IMG/VR virus record: IMGVR_UViG_3300046692_000144
Coordinates: 21,621-85,620 of that record
Source of the DNA: a virus
Lineage: Duplodnaviria; Heunggongvirae; Uroviricota; Caudoviricetes
DNA: 64,000 nucleotides
Direction: 5' to 3' (one strand)
Made by a program: the position numbers and the translations under genes. Positions 1 to 63,085 of the stretch are shown here, piece by piece (within the stretch, counting starts at the first letter, position 1; each line of letters opens with the position of its first letter). The notes under the pieces were generated by a model. The model had not been told where the DNA came from. It saw only the letters and a list, made by a program, of their open reading frames with translations, and did no database searches.

Positions 1-32
1 CCCTCGTACCCTTTAAGTTCTAAGGAATAACC

Positions 33-386
33 ATGACTCACCCAACCCGTACTCCTCGTGTAATGAATGGTCAGTCTCGGACTGCTGACAAGTTCGTAGT
101 TCGTCTCGAAGACGGTCTCCGGGATCGTATCGCAGTCCTGGCCCGTGCGGGTCGTCAAAGCATGAACGCATACATGATCAGTGCTTTGAACGAAGTTGTG
201 ACCAGGGATGAAGACAACGTGGTGGAGAAGAGAACTCCTATCGGTAAAGACATGCCGTGTATGTTCAATGGCGAGGTAGCGATCCTTCTCAAGACATACT
301 TCAACAACGGTCTACTCACCGCTGACGTTGTAACTGCGAAAGGCGAAGGTTGGTCTGTGCTGTACGATACTCTTCAGCCGTATTGA
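33..386 (+). CDS. Ribbon-helix-helix (Arc/MetJ/CopG-like) DNA-binding protein
   Basis: N-terminal segment FVVRLEDGLRDRIAVLARAGRQSMNAYMISAL fits the RHH beta-strand plus two helices and the SMNA motif of Arc-like proteins. It lies next to the iteron region. Confidence 0.5.
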   Translation: MTHPTRTPRVMNGQSRTADKFVVRLEDGLRDRIAVLARAGRQSMNAYMISALNEVVTRDEDNVVEKRTPIGKDMPCMFNGEVAILLKTYFNNGLLTADVVTAKGEGWSVLYDTLQPY

Positions 387-452
387 CAAAACCCGGTCAC
401 TACCATAGACTCATAGGCGTGGAATCCCCCACGACCTCTTGAGTTTATAGAC

Positions 453-650
453 ATGACTACTCCTCGTACCAACGCCGTTACTACCCCTGCTCCACGAGTT
501 AATTCGTACTTCCTGGTTGAACGTGGTACACTCCGTGTGCGCCTCGGCCCAATGTTGACCCGAGAGGAAGCTCGCCAAGTCAAGCGTTCCTACTCTGACA
601 ACGACATGCTTCAGATTGCAAAATCTTCGTTCTGCGAATTCGTTCGTTAA
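453..650 (+). CDS. hypothetical protein
   Basis: 65-aa ORF followed by a terminator hairpin at 674-698. Confidence 0.3.
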   Translation: MTTPRTNAVTTPAPRVNSYFLVERGTLRVRLGPMLTREEARQVKRSYSDNDMLQIAKSSFCEFVR

Positions 651-673
651 GAACTGACCTCAGGGTCAAGAGA

Positions 674-698
674 GAGGACTTCGGTCCTCTTTTCTTTT
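674..698 (+). terminator. rho-independent terminator (GAGGAC-UUCG-GUCCUC + U-run)
   Basis: Perfect 6-bp stem with a UUCG loop followed by TTTTCTTTT. Confidence 0.6.
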
Positions 699-769
699 AG
701 CTAGTAGAATAGCAATCTTCTATTGATCAACGATCAGTCATAGTCCAATCCTATCCAATCCCCTCCGCC

Positions 770-1450
770 CATGTCTAAATGTGTAAAGTATTCTCAACAC
801 CCTGAGTCAGATGTCGAACAGGGTTACGACTACTTGTTGATATTCGTTCTCATTATCTAAGACATCAAGACATGACTTTTCTACTTTTAGACATTTTTAG
901 ACAAAACTAGACAAAGTCATGTCTACGCTGAGAGGCCCGTCCTAGAGCGATTAGACAAAGTTTTAGACATTTCCAAAAGTTCATGTCTAAGTCATGTCTA
1001 CGGCTGCAGCCCAGGCGGGCCGTGGCTTTCAGCCTCTTTTAGACAAAAAGACATGAATTTTCTCCGCACGAGCACCCAGAGCTTGGAAACACACAAATAA
1101 AAAAACAACTCTACAACCTCGTGTTCAACATTCTTTACACAACAGCCATAGCCATGTCATGGGTACATATATATAGTTATAAATATATAAATATATATAG
1201 TATGTATATGACTGTCTCCATTTCTTGTTTTTTATTTCCTGGTTTCTGAGCCCTAGTGCTTGTGCGGAGAAAATTCATGTCTAAATGTCTAGCGCACCCC
1301 TCAAAGCCATACGGGCCGCGGCCTGCAGCCGTAGACATGACTTAGACAAAACTTTGTCTAGATGTCTAATATTTTGTCTAAAGGCTCTAGCACGGGCCTC
1401 TTAGCGTAGACATGGTTTGTCTACGGCTTAGACATGCCTCTGGAGGCCAC
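770..1450. repeat. Iteron-rich non-coding region: about 25 copies of TAGACA(T/A) / AGACATG in both orientations, a 75-bp imperfect inverted repeat (997-1070 vs 1262-1340) and an AT-rich core (1163-1212). Putative origin of replication or operator cluster.
   Basis: Direct reading. Examples: ttttagacatttttagacaaaactagacaaagtcatgtctac; ttagacaaagttttagacatttcc; gtagacatgacttagacaaaactttgtctagatgtctaat. Inverted arms: cggctgcagccc...ttttagacaaaaagacatgaattttctccgcacgagcac and gtgcttgtgcggagaaaattcatgtctaaatgtctagcgcac...ggcctgcagccg. The alternating AT block catatatatagttataaatatataaatatatatagtatgtatatg sits between them. No ORF >60 aa with sensible composition. Confidence 0.55.
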
Positions 1451-1710
1451 GTAGATCAAGGCCTCTTTCCGCGCAGGCTCTAGATCAATGGTTTCAGAGG
1501 TGCTTTGAAGGGCCTCGCCGCAGTATTCTACTACGACCATACCTACGATCACCCTGAGACCCCTTCCTACGCACTGTGAGCTCCTGAGATGCGATCTGAG
1601 CAACGATCTAACTTCACCCCTGGCAAGGGTAGCTCCTAGATCCAGTCGTGGCTCTAAGAGACCTTACAGATCGTTTCCTAAAAAACAGACTTCCCCACAT
1701 CGACCTATGT

Positions 1711-1727
1711 GTGGTATAACAATGATG
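1711..1727 (+). promoter_or_regulatory. promoter-like motif GTGGTATAACAATGATG (extended -10 TGnTATAAC)
   Basis: One of 4 near-identical GGTATAACA(A/G)T(A/G)(A/G)TG copies. Lies 32 bp upstream of the polymerase operon start codon. Confidence 0.4.
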
Positions 1728-1758
1728 TAACACCCCATAACACTTAGAGGTTTTCACC

Positions 1759-3117
1759 ATGTCTACTAACTTCAAACCGATCGGGGGCCTGGGAGATACG
1801 GCCACCCCATCCGGAAAAGTTAAGAAACCAAGAGCCAAGAAGACGAACGAGCTGAGCTTGGACGAGCTGTACGCCAAGGCAGCCGAGATCGGGAAGATGA
1901 TGCCTTCGATCCGGAAGCAGATCATCGAGAAGGAAGACTTCTCCAAGATCCAGGATCGGTACTGCAACTCGGCCTGTGGTCTGTGCCCATCCAGTCGTCG
2001 TCCTAAACAAGTGACTTTGACCACTCAACAGGTCGATATCGTCATAGTTCAGGACCACAACGCTTTAGCCCAGATGTACAAATCCTCTGATGAAATGGAG
2101 CGTATCTACCGGGACATCATTGGCTTCCTGGCTCAGAAATATTTTCAACGGTTGAGCTACGCCGTAGTCAGTACTCTTAAGTGCTTGCCGCAAGCGTCTG
2201 ACCTTCGGGGTCAAACCGTGACAACCACCAAGATCAAACCATGTACTCCCTACCTTCACGAGGAACTTCGCAGGATCAAGCCTAAGGCGATCATCGTGAT
2301 GTCTACGAACTCGATCAGTGCTCTGGGTATCAAGGCCACCTGTTCGTCTAACCGTGGTGAATTCCACACGACTGACTACGGTACTGCGGTGATCACTCTC
2401 CACCCTAAGTCCTTGACGATGATCCGTCAGAATGCCTCAGGTAAAGAATGGGGTCCGGACTACTTCGAAGTCCTTGATCGTGACTTCGCTAAGGCTGCAC
2501 GGATTGCTCGTGGCGACCTGAAGGTAGTAAGTCTTGACGATGCTCTGGCCGAAGCTTCAACTCGGATCACCATTGCTCGATCTATGACTGACGTCAGAGC
2601 CATGATCAAGATCCTTAACGACCTTCCGGCGAACAAGATCATCAGCTTCGACTTGGAGACGACGAGCCTTGATGCCTGGGCGGCTAACGCAAAGATCATC
2701 ACTGCTCAGTTCGGATACACGGACCCTGCGGATGGCGTGATTAAGGCATTGGTATTCCCTCTGTGGCACAGGGCCAACAACTTCTACGATTCAAACGAAG
2801 CTTGGCCGTTGATTGCAGAATTGCTTCTGTCTCAACGACCTAAGGTTGGTCACAACATCAAGTTCGATATCATTTACACCTTCGTTACTACCGGTGTCCG
2901 TGTGGTTAACGCTGCGTTCGATACGTTGCTGTTACTGCACGCGATCAACTCTGGGTTGAAGAACAACTACAGTCTGAAGAAGGCTGTCTGGGACTTCTTA
3001 CCTGAGAGTGGTCTTGGCGGGTACGAAGACAAGCTCCCTGCCCTGACCAAGAGGAAGAAGGTGGTTGAAGGCGAAGAAGAGTCCGAGGAAGAGGAGGTGG
3101 GGGAATGCGACGAATAA
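1759..3117 (+). CDS. DNA polymerase A, N-terminal part: UDG family-4-like domain fused to a 3'-5' exonuclease (Exo I and Exo II motifs only)
   Basis: CNSACGLCPSS...VDIVIVQDHNA...LHPKSL resembles UDG family 4 (Cys cluster and HPS-like motif), but the GEAPG catalytic motif is replaced. ISFDLETTSLD is the Exo I motif and KVGHNIKFDIIY is Exo II. FDTLLLLHAIN aligns to Pol I FDTMLESYIL. The ORF stops before Exo III. Confidence 0.8.
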   Translation: MSTNFKPIGGLGDTATPSGKVKKPRAKKTNELSLDELYAKAAEIGKMMPSIRKQIIEKEDFSKIQDRYCNSACGLCPSSRRPKQVTLTTQQVDIVIVQDHNALAQMYKSSDEMERIYRDIIGFLAQKYFQRLSYAVVSTLKCLPQASDLRGQTVTTTKIKPCTPYLHEELRRIKPKAIIVMSTNSISALGIKATCSSNRGEFHTTDYGTAVITLHPKSLTMIRQNASGKEWGPDYFEVLDRDFAKAARIARGDLKVVSLDDALAEASTRITIARSMTDVRAMIKILNDLPANKIISFDLETTSLDAWAANAKIITAQFGYTDPADGVIKALVFPLWHRANNFYDSNEAWPLIAELLLSQRPKVGHNIKFDIIYTFVTTGVRVVNAAFDTLLLLHAINSGLKNNYSLKKAVWDFLPESGLGGYEDKLPALTKRKKVVEGEEESEEEEVGECDE

Positions 3118-6319: not shown

Positions 6320-6780
6320 GTGGTGGAAATATCAAACCGCTGCACGCGATGCCTCAGTACTGCTTCCCAGGCGTCAAAGGTGATCCAGGTGTCCTAAAGG
6401 CAGTACGGACTATGGCCAAGCCTATCCATGGTATGTTCATGGTTCGTAACTTGAACACCGAACAGACGTTGGGTTCGTTTGTCATGGGTAACACCTCCGG
6501 CTACGATGGTCGTTGGTTTCTTGGTCGTATTCGTAAACACAAAACCCAACCAGGCCGTTTCGAAATTCTGATCCGTCGTAATAAGACGTGCTACTATAAA
6601 ACCGTCGATTCTGAACATGATCTTGCAGACGAATTGCGGTTCATGGACGTAGATGCAGACGTCGAATTCTCTAGCGCTTCCGGTGGGTGGATAACTACGC
6701 CCGACGCAGAGTTTACAGAAATAGGGTTCTCCTCTGGGGAGCCATCGAGGACAAACGGATGGGAAAGTCTGTCGCAGTAA
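6316..6780 (+). CDS. hypothetical protein
   Basis: ATGA overlap with the upstream gene; runs into the polA part 2 start. Confidence 0.4.
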   Translation: MSGGNIKPLHAMPQYCFPGVKGDPGVLKAVRTMAKPIHGMFMVRNLNTEQTLGSFVMGNTSGYDGRWFLGRIRKHKTQPGRFEILIRRNKTCYYKTVDSEHDLADELRFMDVDADVEFSSASGGWITTPDAEFTEIGFSSGEPSRTNGWESLSQ

Positions 6781-8348
6781 AAGAAGAAGCACCGGTATAC
6801 AACACGTATGAGGACTTCCCTCCGGAGGATCTCTACCAGTATGCTGGTGTTGACTGCTTAGCGACAACGGGGGTACTGAACGCAGTATTCCCCAAGATCG
6901 TAGAGCAGAAGTCGTACATGTATTCAAACGGTGGGATCATCGTAGGTGGTAAAGCGCCTGCGATCATCGACTTCATGGATAAGGTAGAAATGCCTGCACA
7001 TGAGTTCCTCATTGACCTGGAATTGAATGGTCTTCGGTACGATGTAGAACTGAATAAGAGCCAGTCGAAGAAGATTCAGGAGGAGTTGCCAGCGTTAGAG
7101 GACAACGTCTTCTCCTTGTTCGGGAAGAAGTTCAACCCTGACTCGGGTAAGGAACTCGGGGATCTTCTTTATCGTGAGCTTGGGTTTACCCCGCCGAGTT
7201 ACACGAAGAAGAATGAGCCGTCTGTCGATGGGGACGCACTGGCTTCCTTGGCTAAGACCCATGACCTTGAATGGTTACGGGTCCTTGCTAGACGAAACAA
7301 CCTGGCATCGGTAGACCGTACGTTCTTCCGTAACTATGTCAGTGACTTCGTGAAGTCTGACGGTCGTATTCACCCGAGTTACAACCTCTTCGGTACTAGT
7401 TCGTATCGAATCACCGGTGACAAACCAAACCTCACCCAATTGCCTAACGCCCAGACCGAGTCGAAGCTTGGGTATGCGATTCGACAGTGCTACATCGCTG
7501 ATCCCGGTCACCTGTTCCTCTGTGCTGACCAAAGCTCTGCCGAAGTGAAGATCTTGGGTGCTCTGTGTAAAGACCCGAAACTGCTCCGGGCTATTGCAGA
7601 AGGTAAGGACTTCCACTCGTACTCTGCTAGTCAGATGCATGGCATTCCTTACGAAGAGATCGTCTGGCACTTGGACTACGAAGGTGACGACGTTGCTATC
7701 CTTGCTATCAAGAAGAAGTACAAAGGCTTGCGTCAAGGCTCGAAGGCTCTGACCTTCGGAATCCTTTATGGCTCCAGCGTTAAGGGCATCGCTTACAACC
7801 TGAACATCACCGAAGCGGAAGCTACTCGTCTCATCGCAATGTACTTCAAAGAGTTCCCACTCATTGAGGTGTATGTGAACGACGCTCATGCAATGGCGAA
7901 GTACAACCATTACGTGATGAACACCTTCGGTCAGGCCAAACGTGAATACGGGGCTATGGACATCTTCCGTAAGACTGCGGTTTACAACGCAGCTTTCCGG
8001 AACGCTCAGAACGTACGTGTTCAGAGTACTGCGTCTACTACCGGTCTGTACGCCTTCTCGAAGTTGAACGAGGCGATCAAACCAATCGGTGGTCGTTCTA
8101 TCTGCACTGTGTATGACTCTGTTGAACTTGAAGTTCCTTTCAAGAAGACCGCAGAGACCATCGAAGCCACCTTCTACACGATGGAAGATCGTCTGGTAGA
8201 AGACTTCGACTGGTTGGATCTACCGATAGCCATCGACTGTGAGATCGGCCCTAACTGGGGTCAGCAGGTCAAGGTTCATCGTGGTATCACCCAGGCAGAA
8301 GTTGAGAAACTGATGCTGGATAAATACCAAATAAACATGGCTGCATAA
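6759..8348 (+). CDS. DNA polymerase A, C-terminal part (Exo III motif plus polymerase domain)
   Basis: YQYAGVDCLATTGVL aligns to Pol I Exo III YAAEDADVTLQL. RIHPSYNLFGTSSYRITGDKPNLTQLP is motif A. KILGALCKDPKLLRAIAEGKDFHSYSASQMHG is the O-helix/motif B region. VYDSVELEV is motif C. The start could instead be the GTG at 6687, which overlaps the upstream gene by 94 nt. Confidence 0.85.
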   Translation: MGKSVAVKEEAPVYNTYEDFPPEDLYQYAGVDCLATTGVLNAVFPKIVEQKSYMYSNGGIIVGGKAPAIIDFMDKVEMPAHEFLIDLELNGLRYDVELNKSQSKKIQEELPALEDNVFSLFGKKFNPDSGKELGDLLYRELGFTPPSYTKKNEPSVDGDALASLAKTHDLEWLRVLARRNNLASVDRTFFRNYVSDFVKSDGRIHPSYNLFGTSSYRITGDKPNLTQLPNAQTESKLGYAIRQCYIADPGHLFLCADQSSAEVKILGALCKDPKLLRAIAEGKDFHSYSASQMHGIPYEEIVWHLDYEGDDVAILAIKKKYKGLRQGSKALTFGILYGSSVKGIAYNLNITEAEATRLIAMYFKEFPLIEVYVNDAHAMAKYNHYVMNTFGQAKREYGAMDIFRKTAVYNAAFRNAQNVRVQSTASTTGLYAFSKLNEAIKPIGGRSICTVYDSVELEVPFKKTAETIEATFYTMEDRLVEDFDWLDLPIAIDCEIGPNWGQQVKVHRGITQAEVEKLMLDKYQINMAA

Positions 8349-11241: not shown

Positions 11242-11772
11242 ATGAAACACGTTAAAGGCGATTTGATCCTAGGCTTCAGCGAAGGTGACTTCGACGTAAT
11301 CGTCCACGGTTGTAACTGTGGTAATAACATGGGCGATGGCATTGCCAGGACTATCAAGGAGAAATACCCGGAAGCTTACGAGGCGGATTGCCGTACGGTT
11401 CGTTTCGACAAAACGAAGTTGGGGACGTACACCCACGCAGATATCTACCGGGATCTCCGAAACTCAGACGGTGTTCGTCGTGGAGTCTTTTTAGGTACGA
11501 TCATCAATGCCTATACCCAGTTCCACTGGTACGGCAAGGGTGTTCTCTGTGACTACGATGCGTTGCGATCTGTGTTCAGGCAGTTGAAGCCGGACTACGG
11601 TAATCAAGGCAAGTCCTTCGGTGTGCCTGCGATTGGAGCTGCTCGTGCTGGCGGTGACTGGCGGATCATTTCTGCAATCATCGACGAAGAGCTGGAAGGC
11701 GAGGAAGTGATCTTCGTTGAGTACAACGGTGTTGACGCTGTTCGTGGTGATTACAAGAGGAATATGAGATGA
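11242..11772 (+). CDS. macro-domain-like protein (putative ADP-ribose binding or processing)
   Basis: VIVHGCNCGNNMGDGIARTIKEKYPEA fits the macro-domain signature N-x-x-N-x-x-(L/M)-G-x-G-(V/I)-A-x-x-I. A second Gly-rich motif GVPAIGAARAGGDW follows. No search was run. Confidence 0.4.
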   Translation: MKHVKGDLILGFSEGDFDVIVHGCNCGNNMGDGIARTIKEKYPEAYEADCRTVRFDKTKLGTYTHADIYRDLRNSDGVRRGVFLGTIINAYTQFHWYGKGVLCDYDALRSVFRQLKPDYGNQGKSFGVPAIGAARAGGDWRIISAIIDEELEGEEVIFVEYNGVDAVRGDYKRNMR

Positions 11773-15186: not shown

Positions 15187-15203
15187 TGGTATAACAGTAG
15201 TGC
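15187..15203 (+). promoter_or_regulatory. promoter-like motif CTGGTATAACAGTAGTG
   Basis: Extended -10 TGGTATAAC. Immediately followed by a hairpin/U-run (15204-15230). Confidence 0.4.
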
Positions 15204-17593: not shown

Positions 17594-17823
17594 AACTCAC
17601 AATGATCCCTATGGATCAAAACAACCGTATGTTCCGACCCATTGCCATTGGCCTTAACGAAGGTCGTCTGTTCGTAAGAACTGATTGGTGGTGGGTCGGG
17701 TTTCGCTGTACCCCCGATGGAAAAGTTAGGGCATTCATATGTCAACTGAAAGCAACTCCGTTCGCCTCGCTCGTATCGAGCTTGAGCTTCTTGAAAAACA
17801 AGCTGAAGACCCTTCTGACCTAG
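17590..17823 (+). CDS. hypothetical protein
   Basis: ATGA-coupled ORF. Overlaps the next gene by about 85 nt in another frame. Confidence 0.3.
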   Translation: MKLTMIPMDQNNRMFRPIAIGLNEGRLFVRTDWWWVGFRCTPDGKVRAFICQLKATPFASLVSSLSFLKNKLKTLLT

Positions 17824-18302
17824 AATGGCAGAAGATGATGACCCGAGATGTTCTTCAGGTCGTCCAGGTCATTTCAGAGCAAGGCCACTCTGGTGGAAGT
17901 ATTGGTCCTTTCCTTAACCTGGTTAGGAAGTGTGCTCTGCAAGAGAACCTTACCCCTCTTACTGGCGAAGACTCTGAGTGGAGTGAAGTAGGTCCCGCCA
18001 TGTGGCAAAACAAGCGATACTCTGCGGTGTTCAAAGACGACGAAGGTAAGGCCTACGACATCGAAGGTTATATCGGTGTTGATCCTGATGGCTGGACGTA
18101 CACGGGTGGCGGTAAGCAGACTACCTGCTACATCGAGTTCCCGTATACGAAGAGCCGTAAGTATTACCCTCGACATGAGCTTATTGCCAAGGCCCCGAGC
18201 TTCACTATGACATTCGAAGAGTCGCTCTGCGATACGGTCGAAGAAGTCATGGAGATCTACGTCAACGCAGGTATTCCTGTACGGGACAAAGTCCTGGTAT
18301 AA
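17739..18302 (+). CDS. hypothetical protein
   Basis: 187-aa ORF. Confidence 0.45.
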   Translation: MSTESNSVRLARIELELLEKQAEDPSDLEWQKMMTRDVLQVVQVISEQGHSGGSIGPFLNLVRKCALQENLTPLTGEDSEWSEVGPAMWQNKRYSAVFKDDEGKAYDIEGYIGVDPDGWTYTGGGKQTTCYIEFPYTKSRKYYPRHELIAKAPSFTMTFEESLCDTVEEVMEIYVNAGIPVRDKVLV

Positions 18303-21575: not shown

Positions 21576-21922
21576 CAATTCTATTCCATGAATTTCTGGA
21601 CAGGATTACTAAGGAAGGGGGGAAGATACAGAACATCATTTTCCAGGGCCCTGACTTAATGCACTCTTACCGAATTGATCAGTTTCTGACTATGCGTAAT
21701 CGATTGCAAACTTTTAAGATAACCTCCCCTAGTGCGCCGAAATCCTACTACCAAACAAGTCGTGCTATCTTTTCATGGAACCCTGCCGGTGGAAATCGGT
21801 TGGAAGACGGAGGTAGGAACTTCGCTTTGGCGGGAGTAGAGGCTGTTCTGAAGGGTGACGTATGTGGTGAGGGGGTTTTTCGCGGCAGAAGCGTCGTTGT
21901 AACCTTGAGGAGATTCCAATGA
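21572..21922 (+). CDS. small-protein paralogue family B, member 3
   Basis: MTILFHEFLDRITKEGG...; ATGA-coupled. Confidence 0.45.
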   Translation: MTILFHEFLDRITKEGGKIQNIIFQGPDLMHSYRIDQFLTMRNRLQTFKITSPSAPKSYYQTSRAIFSWNPAGGNRLEDGGRNFALAGVEAVLKGDVCGEGVFRGRSVVVTLRRFQ

Positions 21923-22540: not shown

Positions 22541-22563
22541 AGAGGCCCGAGGGCCTCTTTTAG
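22541..22563. terminator. bidirectional terminator hairpin AGAGGCCC-GA-GGGCCUCU between convergent genes
   Basis: Direct reading; U-run on the + side. Confidence 0.5.
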
Positions 22564-23183
22564 CTTAAGTGAGAGACTTCAAAGTTTTCATAGACTACCC
22601 AGCCGCCTTCTGTTTCCGGACCAGAATTGTCTATCACATATGCACCGGCTTTAAAGTAGAACGGGAACGCAGTCCACAATGGGCTTACTTGAGTTTGAAA
22701 ACCAAGTCCATTTATCGTAACGGTCAGCATCCCTGACTTATCTATCTCTATCTTGTACTCGAACGACTCTCCTAGAGGGCACGGCACTGAAAGAGCCTTA
22801 GTGGTCAGGCCATTAGGTACTTCTCGAAAATCGATTCGGGCAACCCCATTCCACCAAGTAACCATCAGGAATGGGTTTGAAGCTTTATACGCATGGATTT
22901 GACCTACGATTACTTTTCCAGAACTTGGAATCAGTTCTAGACGAACCTTGCCAGTCAGGGTATGTACTGCCTCACCGGCCACCCAGTTGTAGGGTTCTCC
23001 AGAGCGAGGGAGAGTTTCACGAGTCTCAGTACGAGGACTTGAACTAGATCCAGATAAATCACCAAGAACTGAGCACCAGAAATTTGTATGGCCTTTTGGA
23101 TCGACCCACATTAAATCTTGAGGGGGCTTCTCTGGATACAGGTAAACGGCACCGTGAGCGGTGATATTGCCGAAGTAAAACAT
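22560..23183 (-). CDS. polysaccharide lyase family 7 (alginate-lyase-like) protein
   Basis: Three PL7 signature blocks are present: RTETRE (R-T/S-E-x-R), VGQIHAY (QIH) and FYFKAGAYV (YFKAG-V/A-Y). Confidence 0.6.
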   Translation of the reverse strand: MFYFGNITAHGAVYLYPEKPPQDLMWVDPKGHTNFWCSVLGDLSGSSSSPRTETRETLPRSGEPYNWVAGEAVHTLTGKVRLELIPSSGKVIVGQIHAYKASNPFLMVTWWNGVARIDFREVPNGLTTKALSVPCPLGESFEYKIEIDKSGMLTVTINGLGFQTQVSPLWTAFPFYFKAGAYVIDNSGPETEGGWVVYENFEVSHLS

Positions 23184-26931: not shown

Positions 26932-27161
26932 AGTACCTTTTGATCGTAATGGCTCTTGCTCTGTCCGGCTGCGATTTAACGAGCAAGATCGACAAGGTTG
27001 CCACCGGCGACAATGCAAAGACGGCGTGTATTAAACGACGCTTAGTCCTTGAAAACGTTGAGTATTTCCTCACGAAAACACAGGTTACCTGTGTAGACCC
27101 TTCCACCCTTGAGTTCATCAAACTGAACATCCACAACGTCCAGCGGAGTCAACAGAAATGA
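26928..27161 (+). CDS. small lipoprotein
   Basis: MKYLLIVMALALSGC has the lipobox LSGC. Confidence 0.45.
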   Translation: MKYLLIVMALALSGCDLTSKIDKVATGDNAKTACIKRRLVLENVEYFLTKTQVTCVDPSTLEFIKLNIHNVQRSQQK

Positions 27162-27997
27162 AAGAGAATATCTACCTGCGTTTCGGCAACGTAACTGAAG
27201 AAGTCAGCTACATCAATTTCCCAGGCGGGGAAGTGGTGCCACAGATTCAGACAGGCAACCTCTACCCTGAAAAAGTGATGGAAGTAGAGATCGTGGCCAG
27301 GCTGACAACGCAGGGTGATCTGCTGAACCTGATCATGATCCACGATGCTGTTAGTCGTGTGTATCCCCGAGCAGCGATCTCCGCGTTTATCCCGTACATG
27401 CCGTACGCTCGGCAGGATCGGGTATGCAATCCAGGTGAGCCTCTGAGTATTGCCGTCGTTGCACGACTGATCAACGCCTGCAACTTCGTCAACGTGAAGA
27501 TCCTCGATCCTCACAGTGAAGTGACCCCGGCCCTGTTCAACCGCCTCGAAGTTGTCAACCAGTACGACATCTTCAAAGACATCTATTCGTCGTGGCGAGA
27601 AGTCTACATTGCGGCCCCGGATGGCGGTGCTGCGAAGAAGGCGGAAATGTTCGCTAAACGTGTAGGTGCGGCTGGGGTAATTCACTGCACCAAAGTACGG
27701 GACCTCGAAACGGGTATTATCTCGGGTACTCGTGTAAACGATACTGTCGAAGGTCGTACCCTTCTGGTTCTGGATGATATCGGTGATGGTTGCGGGACTT
27801 TCGTTCCATTGCTTCACTCCCTGAAAAGCCAAGGTGCAACGTCGGTAAGCCTTGCAGTGACCCACGGTCTTTTCTCAAAGGGGATTCCGGTGGTTTCCGA
27901 TATCTACGACCAAGTTTTCACCACTAACAGTTACATTCGCCATCTCAAGGGCACAGGTAATCTGGAAGTACTCAACGTAACCCGCGAAACCAACTAA
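27158..27997 (+). CDS. ribose-phosphate pyrophosphokinase-like enzyme (Prs homologue; possibly an ADP-ribose pyrophosphokinase of a phage NAD+ reconstitution pathway)
   Basis: IPYMPYARQDR (Prs IPYFGYARQDR), LVLDDIGDGCGT (PRPP-binding loop VLVDDMIDTGGT), VTHGLFSKG. Confidence 0.8.
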   Translation: MKENIYLRFGNVTEEVSYINFPGGEVVPQIQTGNLYPEKVMEVEIVARLTTQGDLLNLIMIHDAVSRVYPRAAISAFIPYMPYARQDRVCNPGEPLSIAVVARLINACNFVNVKILDPHSEVTPALFNRLEVVNQYDIFKDIYSSWREVYIAAPDGGAAKKAEMFAKRVGAAGVIHCTKVRDLETGIISGTRVNDTVEGRTLLVLDDIGDGCGTFVPLLHSLKSQGATSVSLAVTHGLFSKGIPVVSDIYDQVFTTNSYIRHLKGTGNLEVLNVTRETN

Positions 27998-28007
27998 GGA
28001 AGTATCC

Positions 28008-29807
28008 ATGCAAGTGCAGATCCCTACGCCAGTAAGCTCCACCGCATACCCTGCAATCACCCGTATGCAAACCCCTCCGGCTCCGATGTACGCAGCCATC
28101 CTCTGTGACGCGTACAAGTTTTGTCACCCAGGTCTGTTCCCGAAAGGCTATACGAAGGGTCAGGGTAACTTCACCCCACGTAGCACCAAGCACTTCCAAG
28201 GCAGTTCTAAGTACGACGGTAAGATCGTTGTCGCGGGGGTTCTCCAAGGTCTGAATGCCATCAACCATGCCTGGAACCAATTCTTTGAAGCTTCGTGGGA
28301 AGAAGTTGAGAGCGTGATCCGCCCTCTGATAGAAGCAACTACTCCGAACGCAGATCTCACCATCTACTCCGATCTGCACAAACTGGGTTATCTGCCTATC
28401 CAGGTTCACGCAGTCGAAGAAGGCCGCGTAGTACGGGCGGGTACTCCGATCATCTTGGTGGACAACACCCATGAGGACTTCGCATGGCTGGCAAGCTACA
28501 CCGAAGACCACTTCAGTAACGAACTGTGGCCTGCCTGCACCGTAGCAACTATTGCTCGTGAGTACCGAATTGTTGCAGAGAAGTACGCAGCACTGACGGC
28601 TGACGATAACGGCTACGTAACGTATCAGTGCCACGACTTCAGTCTTCGCGGTCTGTTTGGCATGTGGGCGGGCTACAAAACTGGTCCTTCGATGCTGTCT
28701 GCGTTTACCGGCACCGATAACATCCCGGGTTGCTTGGCTGCGATGCACGAATACGGCGCAACCAAGGCTGACTTCGGTTCCATCATGGCTACCGAACACA
28801 GTCTGACAACTCTGAACATTCAGATGCGTGCTGTGATGCGTGGCTGCTCCTTGTTCGAAGCAGAGGTAAGCTTCCTCTCTGACTACTTGGACAACGTCGG
28901 TCCTATCAGCTATGTGATGGACAGCTATGACTACTTCGGTATGTTGGAGCACGGCCTGCCACTGCTCAAAGACAAGATCCTGGCTCGTGAAGGGGGTCCG
29001 TTCGTAGTTCGGCCTGACAGCGGCGTCCCTAAGGACATCATCTGCGGCACGGTTGAAGTCTTCGAAATCGGCTCCGAAGCTGAAACCGAAGACCATGCCA
29101 AAGGCTGGATCAAGGACTATGTAACCGAGATGGTCTACGATGAAACCGCACACGGCGAACCTGGCCGTTCCGAAGTTTCTGGCGTTGCCCGCTGGAACGG
29201 TGAGTTGTACCGCTACACCGTGGACATCGAGTGGAACCGTCGTGACAAGCAGTTCTACTACATGGACGGCAAGAAGGTTTCGAAGTTCGAACCTACTACC
29301 CTGACCGTGGAAGAGAAAGGCAGCATCCAGTGGCTGTGGGAACTGTTCGGCGGCACCGTGAACAGCAAAGGCTACAAAGTGCTGAATCCGAAGATCCGCC
29401 TGATCTACGGTGACTCCATTACTATCCAACGCTTCGAAGCTATCTTGCAGCGTCTGATGGAAATGGGCTTCTCCGCAGAGAATATCGTGGTCGGTGTCGG
29501 TAGCTACAGCATCCAGCACATCACCCGTGACTCTCTGGGCTTTGCTATGAAGCTGACTTACGGGGAAGTCAACGGTCTGAAAATCGATGTCTACAAGGCA
29601 CCGAAAACAGACACCGGTAAGCACTCTGCCAAAGGCTGGCTGGCCGTAGAGTTTGATGAGGCTGGTGAGTACATCCCTGTCGAAGGGAAACCCGTTGGTT
29701 ATTACGGTGTTCTCAACTGTGCGTACCGGAACAGCCAAGTTCTATCCAAAGCAACGTTGGTGTCGGTTCGTACGAATCTGACTGAAAGTCTGCCGAAAGC
29801 AGCGTAA
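28008..29807 (+). CDS. nicotinamide phosphoribosyltransferase-like enzyme (NadV/NAMPT homologue; possibly nicotinamide-ADPR transferase)
   Basis: ILCDAYKFCHPGLFP (NAMPT DSYK motif region), CHDFSLRG and GTDN are family hallmarks. At 599 aa it is longer than canonical NadV. Confidence 0.8.
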   Translation: MQVQIPTPVSSTAYPAITRMQTPPAPMYAAILCDAYKFCHPGLFPKGYTKGQGNFTPRSTKHFQGSSKYDGKIVVAGVLQGLNAINHAWNQFFEASWEEVESVIRPLIEATTPNADLTIYSDLHKLGYLPIQVHAVEEGRVVRAGTPIILVDNTHEDFAWLASYTEDHFSNELWPACTVATIAREYRIVAEKYAALTADDNGYVTYQCHDFSLRGLFGMWAGYKTGPSMLSAFTGTDNIPGCLAAMHEYGATKADFGSIMATEHSLTTLNIQMRAVMRGCSLFEAEVSFLSDYLDNVGPISYVMDSYDYFGMLEHGLPLLKDKILAREGGPFVVRPDSGVPKDIICGTVEVFEIGSEAETEDHAKGWIKDYVTEMVYDETAHGEPGRSEVSGVARWNGELYRYTVDIEWNRRDKQFYYMDGKKVSKFEPTTLTVEEKGSIQWLWELFGGTVNSKGYKVLNPKIRLIYGDSITIQRFEAILQRLMEMGFSAENIVVGVGSYSIQHITRDSLGFAMKLTYGEVNGLKIDVYKAPKTDTGKHSAKGWLAVEFDEAGEYIPVEGKPVGYYGVLNCAYRNSQVLSKATLVSVRTNLTESLPKAA

Positions 29808-56939: not shown

Positions 56940-57320
56940 TCAGTTCTGCATGTCGTTGGTGCCGCTAATAAAGCTCTTCATTGACTGGCTCTGGTTCTGA
57001 TAGTAAGTAGCATCTTCAGAAGCGGAGCCCTGTGCATCAGCGAAGTAGTCGGATCGTACCTTAGCCCGCATCGCACCCTCTCGTAGGGTGGCCATGACCG
57101 CACTTGCAGTCTCAATCAATGCCCCAGAAACCATAGTAGGACGACCCTTCGCATGGTTCTGAGACTCGGTAATAATCTGAGTGAAATTCAGGTTCGGCAA
57201 AACCTCCATGAAATTCGGCAGAGGCTTCGTAGGATCTTCGTGATAAGCCTTGACCCCAGAGAAGTAACCATTCATAGCACCGTAGTACTGCTCGACTTGT
57301 CCAGTAGAGGTATCTGCCAT
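56940..57320 (-). CDS. structural protein
   Basis: ORF. Confidence 0.4.
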   Translation of the reverse strand: MADTSTGQVEQYYGAMNGYFSGVKAYHEDPTKPLPNFMEVLPNLNFTQIITESQNHAKGRPTMVSGALIETASAVMATLREGAMRAKVRSDYFADAQGSASEDATYYQNQSQSMKSFISGTNDMQN

Positions 57321-58015
57321 TATTGGTACCTAATCATTTCAGTTTGGATTCCCTTCAGCTTCTTGACCATCTTACCTTTCAAGTAGTTGAGGCGGTTTAC
57401 GTTGATCCCTAGTTTGACCGCAAGCTCCGTAGAAGAAAGCTCACCTGTATGCTTCATGATCAATTGCTCTTCTGGAGAAAGCTGATCCATCATGTGTTCG
57501 AACATAGGCTTGCCTGCGTCAAAGCGAGAATACTCACTAGCTTTCTCTTTGCTGCTCTCAACGATGTCCTGGTAAATACCAGATTTGAACTTGATGACTG
57601 CCTTCTTTGACCAACCAAGTTCAGCAGCCAGCTCCTCGTCAGAAGGATCACGGCTCAAACGTTCGGTGAGGCCTTGTTGAGCATTGTTGTACTTGTGATA
57701 AATCAGTTGGTTGTTCTCAGACAGCCGAGCAGCGTTCTGATACCGATAGTTCATACGACGAACCTTCTGAAGATAGTTCGTAACGTGAGTCGATAGCTGA
57801 GTGCCTTTCGAAGGATCATACGTGTGGATCGCATGGATTGCCCACTTAGTAGCCTCCGAGGTCAAGGCTTGCGGTGGCAAGGTCCCTGACGCTCGCTTAA
57901 CTTCGGTGTGGATCAAGGGCATCAACTGAACTACAAGCTTGCTCAAGTCCTGCTGAGACTTGGTATCCTGATACTTCTGAAACAGCTCTTGGTCTAACTT
58001 TCTTACTTCTGACAT
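57320..58015 (-). CDS. sigma-70-family RNA polymerase sigma factor
   Basis: Region 2: AIHTYDPSKGTQLSTHVTNYLQ resembles FDPxKGxxFSTYAxWWIRQ. Region 4 HTH: LSPEEQLIMKHTGELSSTELAVKLGINVNRLNYLKGKMVKKLK. Confidence 0.55.
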   Translation of the reverse strand: MSEVRKLDQELFQKYQDTKSQQDLSKLVVQLMPLIHTEVKRASGTLPPQALTSEATKWAIHAIHTYDPSKGTQLSTHVTNYLQKVRRMNYRYQNAARLSENNQLIYHKYNNAQQGLTERLSRDPSDEELAAELGWSKKAVIKFKSGIYQDIVESSKEKASEYSRFDAGKPMFEHMMDQLSPEEQLIMKHTGELSSTELAVKLGINVNRLNYLKGKMVKKLKGIQTEMIRYQ

Positions 58016-61600: not shown

Positions 61601-63085
61601 TCAACCTGATAGAGTTGCGCCAGAACCGGAATTGTAGCTAGAACCGGAGTTAAGTAGTGCAATCTTAGCTCTGCTCACTTTTCCTGACTTCAGAGAAGCA
61701 ATGTGACCTGACTTAGCCCCACCCTTCGATAGCCGCTTCAGAATGCTGGAGATGTTCTCAGGTGCAGAGGTAATAGCACCCGCAGCATTTCTCAAGGCCT
61801 GGATTGTTCTGCGGATATCATTACTGCCAGACTCGAATGACGAGACAAGACTATCTACACCACCTTCGATGGCGTTGACCAGTGCGATAGCTTCGTTAGA
61901 TATCGACTTGATATCCTGAAGAATGCTGCCGAGAATAGAACTCCCACCACTAAACAACGATAGGACTGATCCCGTGATCGACTTCACAACCTTAGTCAGA
62001 GTAGTAAGTACGCCGTAGACTGGGGCAATGATATTTGCACGAAGACTCGCTACGGACAGAAATCCACCCACAGAGTTATCAAAGAATCCACGAGCAGCGT
62101 TGATAGCACCATTTACTGCTGAGTTGACACCTCCTGCGAAGTTTTCAATGCTAGCAGCAGCATCACCTAGTATGCCAGAACTTGCACCCATGGTAGATCC
62201 AAGATACGCTCTAGCGCTATCCACACCACGTTTAATATTGTTGATAACTGCGGTGTTCTGAAACCTAGCCGGAAGCTCCGCCTGAGCAATGTTCAACTTC
62301 AATGCGTCGTTGTTCAAAAGCTCAGACGGCATAAGTACCGGACGTGGCTGTATAGACTTCGCAAGGAACTGCATTGAAAAGTGGATATCGGTATCTCGGG
62401 ATGAATCCTGGGAATACGAAGTTCCTAGGATAGTCCCTATCAAAGTCATGTTTGGAAGGCTGATCTGAACCAACTGGTGATTCTGAGCTACCTTAGTACC
62501 ACGTAAGACTCCATGGTATGCAACCATGTATTTGTAGAACCAGTTATTGTCGATGTCGTCAAATAGGACCCCGGAGAAGTTGAAGGTCACAGGGCTACGT
62601 CCGAAGTAGTACACCACTTCAGAATCACCGAATACTTCGTTCACTTGAACCTTTTCGTTGAAGGACACATCTACGTTCGTTAACAGAAAGTCAGTGTAGC
62701 CAGAGTCGCTTAGTAACTTGTCAGCTACTTCGCTAAGACCTTGGTTACCTGCGTTAACTTCTAAGAGATCCTTCATGACCTCCATGTTGCTACGATCAGA
62801 TTTGAGCTTGATAGAGGCGATAGGCCCACGATCAGACGTGTATTTCATCAGGTTATTCAAGGGAGTAGAACGAGGCCTTACGGTAAGACCTCGCTCCGTC
62901 TGTTTGATAACCCCAGCATTAGAAATGCTATCGCTCCCAGAAGAGGAGTTCTTGTTACTGTTCAATCCGGCAGACGACAAAAGACCTGCCGCAGTATCCT
63001 TCGCAGTACCGATATACGAAACTGCACCGCCTACGGCTTGCCTGGCGCTGTTAACTGTACCTGCTAGATCACTTACTGCTGACAT
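61601..63085 (-). CDS. Gly/Ser/Ala-rich virion protein
   Basis: ORF. Confidence 0.4.
   Translation of the reverse strand: MSAVSDLAGTVNSARQAVGGAVSYIGTAKDTAAGLLSSAGLNSNKNSSSGSDSISNAGVIKQTERGLTVRPRSTPLNNLMKYTSDRGPIASIKLKSDRSNMEVMKDLLEVNAGNQGLSEVADKLLSDSGYTDFLLTNVDVSFNEKVQVNEVFGDSEVVYYFGRSPVTFNFSGVLFDDIDNNWFYKYMVAYHGVLRGTKVAQNHQLVQISLPNMTLIGTILGTSYSQDSSRDTDIHFSMQFLAKSIQPRPVLMPSELLNNDALKLNIAQAELPARFQNTAVINNIKRGVDSARAYLGSTMGASSGILGDAAASIENFAGGVNSAVNGAINAARGFFDNSVGGFLSVASLRANIIAPVYGVLTTLTKVVKSITGSVLSLFSGGSSILGSILQDIKSISNEAIALVNAIEGGVDSLVSSFESGSNDIRRTIQALRNAAGAITSAPENISSILKRLSKGGAKSGHIASLKSGKVSRAKIALLNSGSSYNSGSGATLSG

Follow-up and report, generated by a model that had tools for sequence, protein, structure and literature searches.

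A stretch of 64,000 nucleotides from an uncultured phage (IMG/VR record IMGVR_UViG_3300046692_000144, positions 21,621 to 85,620; the whole of it is called the window here) carries, upstream of its DNA polymerase operon, an intergenic region crowded with short repeats, or iterons, of the sequence TAGACA. Sequence comparison indicates that one phage genome of ~165 kb contains a family of at least three scattered modules of about 600 bp, M1, M2 and M3, and that this region (905-1500) is the copy M1. That the iteron region belongs to a dispersed repeat family is new here, and the multi-copy module is the main new finding. The initial annotation had presented the region as a putative replication origin or repressor-operator cluster, and a single locus of either kind is difficult to reconcile with a module that occurs in at least three dispersed copies per genome. 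It is proposed, with a probability of roughly 0.4, that the modules are multiple replication origins built of iterons and an unwinding element, which are bound by a phage protein and also recombine with each other. Module coordinates are given in window numbering throughout, and related loci that were fetched for comparison are denoted by L and a number.

A module in dispersed copies

The window's own copy, M1, precedes the operon of the split DNA polymerase. M2 was found through the right-arm pattern in an IMG/VR contig (L017, the same as L022), where the module is 87-88% identical and the remaining 10 kb are without detectable DNA or protein similarity to the window. It is located between multisubunit RNA-polymerase genes and the operon of a 112-aa gene, SNF2 helicase, Thy1 and dUTPase. 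M3 was reached through the window's own 494-aa protein (61601-63085), which led to locus L025; there the module separates two genes on opposite strands, one for a small ubiquitin-like protein and one for the large subunit of the terminase, and is upstream of the latter. Alignment of the three copies reveals homology from ~905 to 1500, with sharp boundaries, a near-identical centre and a pairwise identity of 83-88%; at ~1500 the homology between the paralogous copies stops. The metagenomic loci L018 and L019, together with nearly all matches to the 14-base pattern GCGCTAGACANNNNGACA, proved to be chance matches, and only L095 is a genuine further module.

The Logan contig SRR26075501_746662 (67,754 bp) starts in the right arm of M3 (L026) and ends in the right arm of M1 (L010), and both of its ends read 'ctctagcacgggcctcttagcgTAGACAtg.tttTGTCTAcggc', at the same right-arm position but in opposite orientation. 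M1 and M3 therefore reside in one genome, ~68 kb apart and mutually inverted. The longest contig is 165,460 bp both for the M1-adjacent protein P0127 and for the M2-adjacent protein P0121, and the two are taken to be one and the same contig. For the complete genome, three copies at distances of ~45, 68 and 52 kb are predicted, and there may be a fourth.

Contigs from this group of phages tend to end at the modules, since repeats break short-read assembly. Of the 18 fetched via genes just downstream of M1, M2 and M3, 13 stop within a module or next to one, at positions that vary (9 of 12 for the polymerase gene and 4 of 5 for the 112-aa gene, plus the M3 end of SRR26075501_746662), and many metagenomic contigs stop within the right arm (1225-1423). 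A physical genome end or a hairpin telomere was considered as the source of these breaks and rejected, as the break points vary and the two ends of one contig are an identical repeat.

Architecture of the module

The initial annotation had recorded a 75-bp imperfect palindrome. The palindrome is real, but its size was understated: it extends over 516 bp, with arms of ~200 bp each that are 84% identical (163/195) in a gapped alignment with the reverse complement, while an ungapped comparison of the arms gives 95 nt at 84%. The arm alignment confirmed that the motifs form mirror arrays in symmetric arms around the AT block, as had been described. Each arm holds ~8-10 TAGACA(A/T) sites in mirror-image order together with three or four other conserved boxes, and these sub-elements are conserved across the seven modules compared. 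The right-flank block that follows the right arm belongs to the repeated module; it does not vary between the window, L003 and L013 or among M1, M2 and M3, and occurs once in the window. M3-type copies have the block at either end, in inverted orientation, so that their palindrome reaches ~650 bp. Folding of a 531-nt stretch as single-stranded DNA gives a single long hairpin (-158 kcal/mol, z = -20), a value that does no more than restate the symmetry. A site of telomere resolution by a protelomerase was rejected on account of the 116-bp asymmetric centre, the arm identity of 84% and the absence of a protelomerase gene among those seen. No match was returned by a blastn comparison of the region with 50,697 phage records or by a search of window positions 1-3000 against Rfam (E <= 1).

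The iteron array is far denser than chance would allow, as the initial annotation had maintained. TAGACA occurs 42 times on both strands of the 64-kb window, and 20 of these sites fall within 772-1434, which is ~1% of its length; the shuffle density predicts ~0.37 sites in these 663 bp (Poisson P ~6e-28). In 236 comparison loci, which are chance matches to a sequence pattern and unrelated to the module, the densest 700-bp stretch holds at most four. All 20 cluster sites have A or T directly after TAGACA, and the motif pooled from six modules shows a weak extension to yTAGACAwrA. Four variant sites (AGACAT at 860, 868 and 1049; GAGACA at 1213) bring the total to ~24, close to the 'about 25' iterons first counted. 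Neighbouring iterons are mostly one helical turn apart (10-12 bp in 40 of 70 spacings, mode 11 bp; the remainder near 20, 32 and 8 bp), so that they lie on one face of the helix. The heptamer is not equally frequent window-wide: outside 772-1434 TAGACA is under-represented, with 22 sites seen versus ~35 expected from shuffles (~-2.2 sd), a depletion that would fit avoidance of stray binding sites away from the module.

Iteron-like sites (TAGACATG) are also found across two start codons, that of the 65-aa open reading frame (ORF) upstream of M1 (448-456, forward, where the TAGACATGA site spans the codon) and that of the polymerase gene (1757-1765, reverse), the latter kept in L013 and not in L003. 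They may be a coincidence, or may couple translation or transcription to the iteron binder.

Between the arms lies the asymmetric centre, and its (TA)n-rich block at 1160-1210 is the least stable duplex of the window. The nearest-neighbour energy of this block over 40 bp is -33.5 kcal/mol, compared with a window mean of -54.2 kcal/mol (z = 6.6, with the runner-up at z = 3.5), and the equivalent block is the least stable also in L003, L013, L022 and L025 (z = 6.1-6.5). This lends weight to the earlier suggestion that the alternating-AT core is a plausible DNA-unwinding element. The centre contains weak sigma70-like hexamers arranged face to face, at 1149-1177 (+) and 1218-1190 (-), and such promoter-like matches are present in M1, M2 and M3. 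An invertible centre was not observed: relative to the right-flank block and the downstream gene, the order of mixed sequence and then AT block is constant in 8 of 8 modules.

Conservation, concerted evolution and rearrangement

The two relatives L003 and L013, whose exonuclease protein is 71-73% identical, have the same layout, with the terminator, iteron arms, AT centre, right-flank block (TCCGCGCAG..TCTAGATCAAKGGTTTCAGAG) and promoter all in place, and each related genome contains a self-complementary stretch of 500-620 bp. Arms within a genome are 79-84% identical to each other, versus 68-80% between distant genomes, where left arms match left arms no better than they match right arms. The likeness of arms within a genome thus exceeds that between genomes, and the symmetry itself is therefore maintained.

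A similar pattern holds for whole modules. Lineage A comprises M1, M2 and M3, and lineage B comprises L013 (M1 position) and L095 (M3 position, beside the terminase), the lineage-B copies coming from different samples. Module identity is 83-88% among lineage-A copies and 75-78% among lineage-B copies (77% for L013 versus L095); it is 54-59% between A and B, whose flanking genes are 78% (terminase) and 70% (polymerase-exonuclease) identical at the DNA level. Further, the lineage-A M3 is 87% identical to its paralogue M1 versus 78% to its positional orthologue L021, the flanks of which are 79% identical. Since copies within a lineage are more alike than orthologues, they are homogenised within genomes, that is, by concerted evolution. 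The modules drift faster than the adjacent genes, yet the TAGACA core, the phasing, several GC boxes and the AT centre are kept.

Locus L020 has early genes, then a module and then the ubiquitin-like gene in flipped orientation. This junction is the one expected if the M1-M3 segment (~68 kb) had been inverted by recombination between the inverted modules, which would recombine because they are long and similar. In a divergent lineage (L027, L028) an iteron arm is found upstream of the 112-aa gene, and the M2 position is therefore old too. Upstream of the uracil-DNA glycosylase (UDG)-exonuclease gene of Salmonella phage Arash there is no iteron or palindrome module, and the corresponding gap in L016, a relative of 51% identity, measures ~320 bp.

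Elements flanking M1

The features of M1 and its surroundings are collected in Table 1. Positions 694-1758, between the terminator and the polymerase start at 1759, contain short non-conserved ORFs only, in keeping with their earlier description as non-coding. Two small plus-strand genes, encoding an Arc-type ribbon-helix-helix (RHH) protein and the 65-aa protein, precede the terminator. As M1 follows this block of small early genes, a T5-like injection-stop signal was considered; it was rejected as it leaves M2 and M3 unexplained. The GC hairpin that abuts M2 matches the terminator scan on the minus strand only, its plus strand being without a T-tail, and may likewise be a terminator.

Table 1. 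Features of the M1 module and its flanks, in window coordinates.
Feature	Position	Strand	Description
AmrZ-like RHH (Arc family) protein	33-386	+	117 aa; Pfam Arc PF03869, E 2.6e-7; PDB 3QOQ AmrZ, E 1.8e-8
65-aa protein	453-650	+	function unknown; very highly conserved; present in L003, L013, L020 and L009
Intrinsic terminator	670-693	+	from terminator scan; ends the upstream early small-ORF operon; stem kept in L003 and L013
Outlying M1-specific iterons	772-903		TGTCTA at 772; AGACAT at 860 and 868; TAGACA at 888 and 898; outside the block common to M2 and M3
Left arm	908-1108		7 TAGACA/TGTCTA and AGACAT at 1049; GC boxes GAGAGGCCCGTCCTAGAGC, CGGCTGCAGCC and TGGCTTTCAGCC (the last GGC-N5-GCC at 1022-1032); A-tract at inner end
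Asymmetric centre	1109-1224	+	116 bp; ~50 bp of mixed sequence, then (TA)n-rich block at ~1160-1210, putative DNA-unwinding element
Right arm	1225-1423		9 iterons; mirror GC boxes GCGCACCCCTCAAAGCC and GGCCTGCAGCCG
Right-flank block	1429-1500	+	CCTCTGGAGGCC..GTAGATCAAGG..TCCGCGCAGGCTCTAGATCAATGGTTTCAGAGG; belongs to the repeated module
Leader elements	1578-1630	+	GAGCTCCTGAGA at 1578-1589; small hairpin CCCCTGGCAAGGG at ~1617-1629
Extended -10-type promoter	1712-1722	+	TGGTATAACAA; predicted for the polymerase operon starting at 1759

The leader elements are conserved in L003 and L013 and downstream of M3, and the pairing of the hairpin, read by eye, is retained despite sequence changes in L005, L007 and L011. 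They could serve as a leader, as an element for processing, or as a promoter that the phage RNA polymerase recognises. The promoter-like motif placed by the initial annotation at 1711 (TGGTATAACAAT) is kept in relatives, where the promoter sequence TGTGGTATAACAA before the polymerase gene is invariant, and it recurs in the window. An exact second copy of TGGTATAACAA is present at 36345-36355 and copies with one mismatch at 15187 and 39921, that is, four matches versus 0.9 expected, upstream of operons. The motif is found in phage Arash as well (L014:1393), upstream of its homologous region, and is probably the main promoter type of the clade. The iteron nearest to this promoter is ~280 bp upstream of it, which speaks against a cluster of repressor operators for the polymerase promoter.

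Candidate iteron-binding proteins

The RHH protein had been suggested as the iteron binder, and its sequence makes this unlikely. The beta-strand of the protein, SRTADKFVVRL, matches that of AmrZ (PDB 3QOQ) at every residue, and in AmrZ K18, V20 and R22 read two GGC half-sites with a 5-bp A/T-rich linker, and a GGC to GTC change lowers the affinity ~10-fold (PMC3325190). TAGACA contains no GGC. The homologue in L013 is 37% identical with the same ADKFVVRL strand and is encoded 1.4 kb upstream of the module (0.5 kb in the window); within the parts fetched, a search of the 10 kb that precede the L003 module and of the surroundings of M2 (L017/L022) and M3 (L025) yielded no RHH gene. A TGGCTTT(C/G)AG box is conserved in each arm, and in the left arm of M1 it reads GGC-TTTCA-GCC (1022-1032). 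This GGC-N5-GCC or TGGCTTTGAG box would be a better candidate site than the iterons for the RHH protein or for a host AmrZ. No partition ATPase of the ParA or ParM type is encoded next to the RHH gene; the PHROG label 'partition protein ATPase' spans the Arc-like domain only.

The 65-aa protein may be considered a candidate DNA-binding factor. It has 34 invariant residues among 15 homologues, and its AlphaFold model, a beta-hairpin and two helices, is of low confidence (pLDDT 57). Pfam searches at E <= 10 gave nothing usable for the module-adjacent proteins, that of 65 aa at M1 and those of 181 and 112 aa at M2.

Proposed replication origins and other possible functions

An origin-like reading of the region is reasonable but unproven. 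The array is genuine, conserved and of the protein-binding type, and its symmetry around an outstanding element of the DNA-unwinding type is the layout classically seen in iteron origins. Both arms would be coated on one face of the helix by a conserved phage protein that binds DNA; this protein would bend or wrap the DNA and thereby stress the AT block until it melts. Replisomes would then be loaded bidirectionally at the melted block, possibly aided by transcription from the weak promoters of the centre, and several such origins would permit fast replication of the 165-kb genome. It also counts for origins that five of the six module flanks are co-oriented with outgoing forks, because M2 and M3 are situated at divergent gene junctions. 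The frequency of GATC, 8.1/kb in the intergenic region versus 5.75/kb window-wide, is not treated as meaningful.

Several observations weigh against origins. The GC skew, proposed earlier as a check, keeps its sign across M1 in the window and across the module in L003, L013 and L009; in this phage the skew follows the coding strand. There are no DnaA boxes (<=1 mismatch) in M1 or M2, and a single match in L013. Beside M1, M2 and M3 no Pfam or PHROGs match to a Rep, DnaA, primase-helicase or winged-helix initiator was obtained, though an initiator of an unrecognised type could be encoded there. Large virulent phages can also use recombination-dependent replication with ill-defined origins. Finally, each copy is in a fixed orientation just upstream of a major operon, a terminator precedes M1 and a GC hairpin abuts M2, and the right-flank block of M2 ends ~40 bp before the 112-aa gene, which has no separate promoter and hence needs one inside M2. 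These arrangements suit a role in transcription at least as well.

The main rival reading, possible though somewhat doubtful, is that the modules are transcriptional hubs, acting as enhancers, insulators or promoters. The arrays would bind a phage transcription factor, a promoter in the centre or the right-flank block would drive the polymerase, SNF2/nucleotide-metabolism and terminase/structural operons, and the palindrome would insulate them from the terminated upstream operon. The sigma70-like hexamers conserved in the three centres are in line with this, as is the single base that separates TAGACA from the -35 consensus TTGACA, and the homologous regions (hrs) of baculoviruses serve as enhancers as well as origins (PMC13513840). 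However, ~210 bp separate M1 from the distinct and conserved TGGTATAACAAT promoter, which can do without the module; the matches to promoters are weak (9/12); the operons that follow the three copies are of different temporal classes; and two phased arrays of ~10 sites with strict mirror symmetry and a melting-prone core are unusual for bacterial or phage promoters. Roles in replication and transcription could coexist. A bolder form of the origin reading, advanced only tentatively, regards the modules as the phage counterpart of baculovirus hrs or herpesvirus origin repeats: concertedly evolving origins and enhancers that fire at several points, organise the major operons and flip large segments. 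Their binder would be a small phage protein of a new and highly conserved kind, such as the 65-aa protein (453-650).

Other explanations carry less weight. Recombination or packaging signals, that is, sites for a site-specific recombinase or the terminase that bring about programmed inversion (as in HSV repeats or the P1 C-segment) or the start of headful packaging, are an unlikely function. The mutual inversion of M1 and M3 and the L020 junction are what such signals would produce, M3 is directly upstream of the terminase large-subunit gene, and the iterons include TGTCT-type half-sites, which we take to resemble resolvase sites. On the other hand, no recombinase gene was noticed among the immediate neighbours of the copies, the packaging genes are distant from M1 and M2, the constant orientation of the centre argues against a flipping one, and contig ends are scattered instead of marking one cut site; homologous recombination between 600-bp repeats of 87% identity is enough to explain the inversion and the concerted evolution, and no dedicated function is required. 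It appears very improbable that the module is an operator or a centromere-like cluster to which the adjacent RHH protein binds, in the manner of omega heptads, ParG or ParR-parC. RHH proteins do bind arrays of short direct or inverted repeats at a spacing of about one turn, the gene is close to the module in the window and L013 with its reading strand kept at 37% identity, and TGTC is one base from the TGGC of AmrZ. Against these stand the GGC-reading strand with its ~10-fold cost for GTC, the better candidate site in the arm box, the lack of an RHH gene by the other modules searched and of an adjacent ParA/ParM-type ATPase, and the virulent look of the phage, in the annotation of which no plasmid-prophage genes are seen. 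Equally improbable is a selfish fold-back element resembling a miniature inverted-repeat transposable element, spread among intergenic regions and functionless for the phage. A multi-copy, non-coding sequence of ~600 bp with long terminal inverted repeats in different contexts would qualify as one, but target-site duplications are absent at the homology boundaries of the M1/M2/M3 alignment, no copy lies within a gene, the three positions are syntenic across lineages only 54-59% identical in the module, and the internal motifs, phasing and AT core are conserved while the remainder drifts.

The phage and its gene content

The phage that carries the modules is large, virulent in type and uncultured. 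Close homologues occur on contigs of 164,999 bp (JGI 3300047323, Ga0495683_0000021), 165,460 bp and 168,696 bp (JAAQVM011840904.1), and by polymerase the nearest cultured relatives are Salmonella phage Arash (180 kb) and Vibrio phage D69, at ~41-44% aa identity. The window encodes, in addition to the genes already described, an SNF2 helicase, PhoH and tail fibres. Counter-defence and host-interaction functions are represented by a Tad3 (anti-Thoeris) homologue (17739-18302), a macro-domain protein (11242-11772), NAMPT with a PRPP-synthetase-like protein (27158-29807), a pair for NAD reconstitution, and an alginate lyase (22560-23183). The lyase, taken with the AmrZ-like RHH gene, suggests an alginate-producing, Pseudomonas-like host.

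By Pfam, the family-A DNA polymerase downstream of M1 is split into a UDG-like and 3'-5' exonuclease half (1759-3117) and a polymerase half (6687-8348), separated by ~3.5 kb with 6-7 conserved ORFs of unknown function. The annotation of Arash is likewise in two parts, 'polymerase nu' and 'polymerase theta', and in L003 (15560-17943) an HNH endonuclease gene splits the polymerase domain again. Also in L003 (6228-6779), a fragment of an IS605 OrfB/TnpB (Cas12f-like) gene lies on the opposite strand within the early-gene block. Beside M2, multisubunit RNA-polymerase beta/beta'-like proteins with Pfam Rpb2_6 (1118 aa) and Rpb1 domains (377 aa) are encoded (L022:2109-6613) in a genome of only ~165 kb, and the structural operon of the window includes a sigma-like protein of 231 aa that resembles sigma70 region 3 (57320-58015). 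Beside M3 (L025:1-2969; L020:2920-3130; L021:2357-2557), a 65-aa ubiquitin-like protein with a weak Prok_Ub match is encoded by the first gene of an operon with a JAB-domain protein, which looks like a phage-encoded cassette for ubiquitin-like conjugation or deconjugation.

Significance and comparison with known systems

The origins of large virulent phages are mostly unknown, notably in the poorly studied clade around Salmonella phage Arash, in which multisubunit RNA polymerase genes were found here. The modules provide precise and testable origin candidates, for which the three sites, the motif and the unwinding element are all specified, and the repeats account for metagenomic assemblies of the clade breaking at the same places. 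Long palindromes are usually a liability, being targets of SbcCD and Lamassu/DdmABC (PMC11707656). As they are costly and have yet been retained in three copies across diverged lineages, strong selection can be argued. No description of such modules in phages was found in limited literature searches, which do not prove absence.

The closest described anatomy is that of the origins of Staphylococcus pathogenicity islands (SaPI), in which two oppositely oriented sets of short 5-6-bp iterons surround an AT-rich centre; the initiator melts the centre and a helicase is loaded on each side (PMC9371898). Opposed iteron sets flanking an AT-rich centre are common to both. However, SaPI origins have 6-12 iterons in ~100-200 bp, are single-copy and lie immediately downstream of the rep gene, whereas the modules have ~20 iterons and extra conserved boxes in a palindrome of 516-600 bp, occur in at least three copies and have no recognisable initiator gene alongside. 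Among phages, the oriL and oriR of Bacillus phage SPP1 and lambda-type origins have repeated initiator boxes next to an AT-rich region, in SPP1 as two copies ~32 kb apart. There, at least one origin is within or beside the initiator gene, and the repeats are ~19 bp long, fewer and without a half-kilobase palindrome. RHH operators and centromeres (omega heptads, ParR-parC, AmrZ sites) share with the modules short repeats in two orientations, a phasing of about one turn and a nearby RHH gene; they differ in that the RHH protein here has GGC-reading residues, is unlinked to the other copies and is without a partition ATPase.

The hrs of baculoviruses are dispersed, non-coding copies of an imperfect palindrome between transcription units, more alike within a genome than between species, and have been proposed as origins and enhancers (PMC13513840). 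The modules resemble them in their several dispersed palindromic copies, their concerted evolution and their placement between transcription units. While hrs are built from ~70-bp units in tandem, and an IE1 dimer binds the 30-bp palindrome that each unit contains, a module is one palindrome of 516-650 bp made of 6-7-bp iterons around an AT core, in a virus of a bacterial host, and there is no sequence or protein homology; the likeness is one of analogy and not of membership. In oriS and oriL of herpes simplex virus (HSV) and in the archaeal arrangement of two origin recognition boxes around a DNA-unwinding element (ORB-DUE-ORB), inverted initiator sites surround an AT-rich centre in a palindrome, multiple origin copies occur per genome, and genome isomerisation in HSV goes along with origins that lie in inverted repeats. 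Those palindromes are 45-144 bp long with 2-3 binding boxes, and their initiators are UL9 and Orc1/Cdc6; the palindrome of the modules is far longer, and the genes that adjoin it include no recognisable initiator. If the origin reading is true, phages too would have evolved dispersed homologous palindromes that combine the roles of origin and recombination hot spot, a design familiar from DNA viruses of insects and vertebrates.

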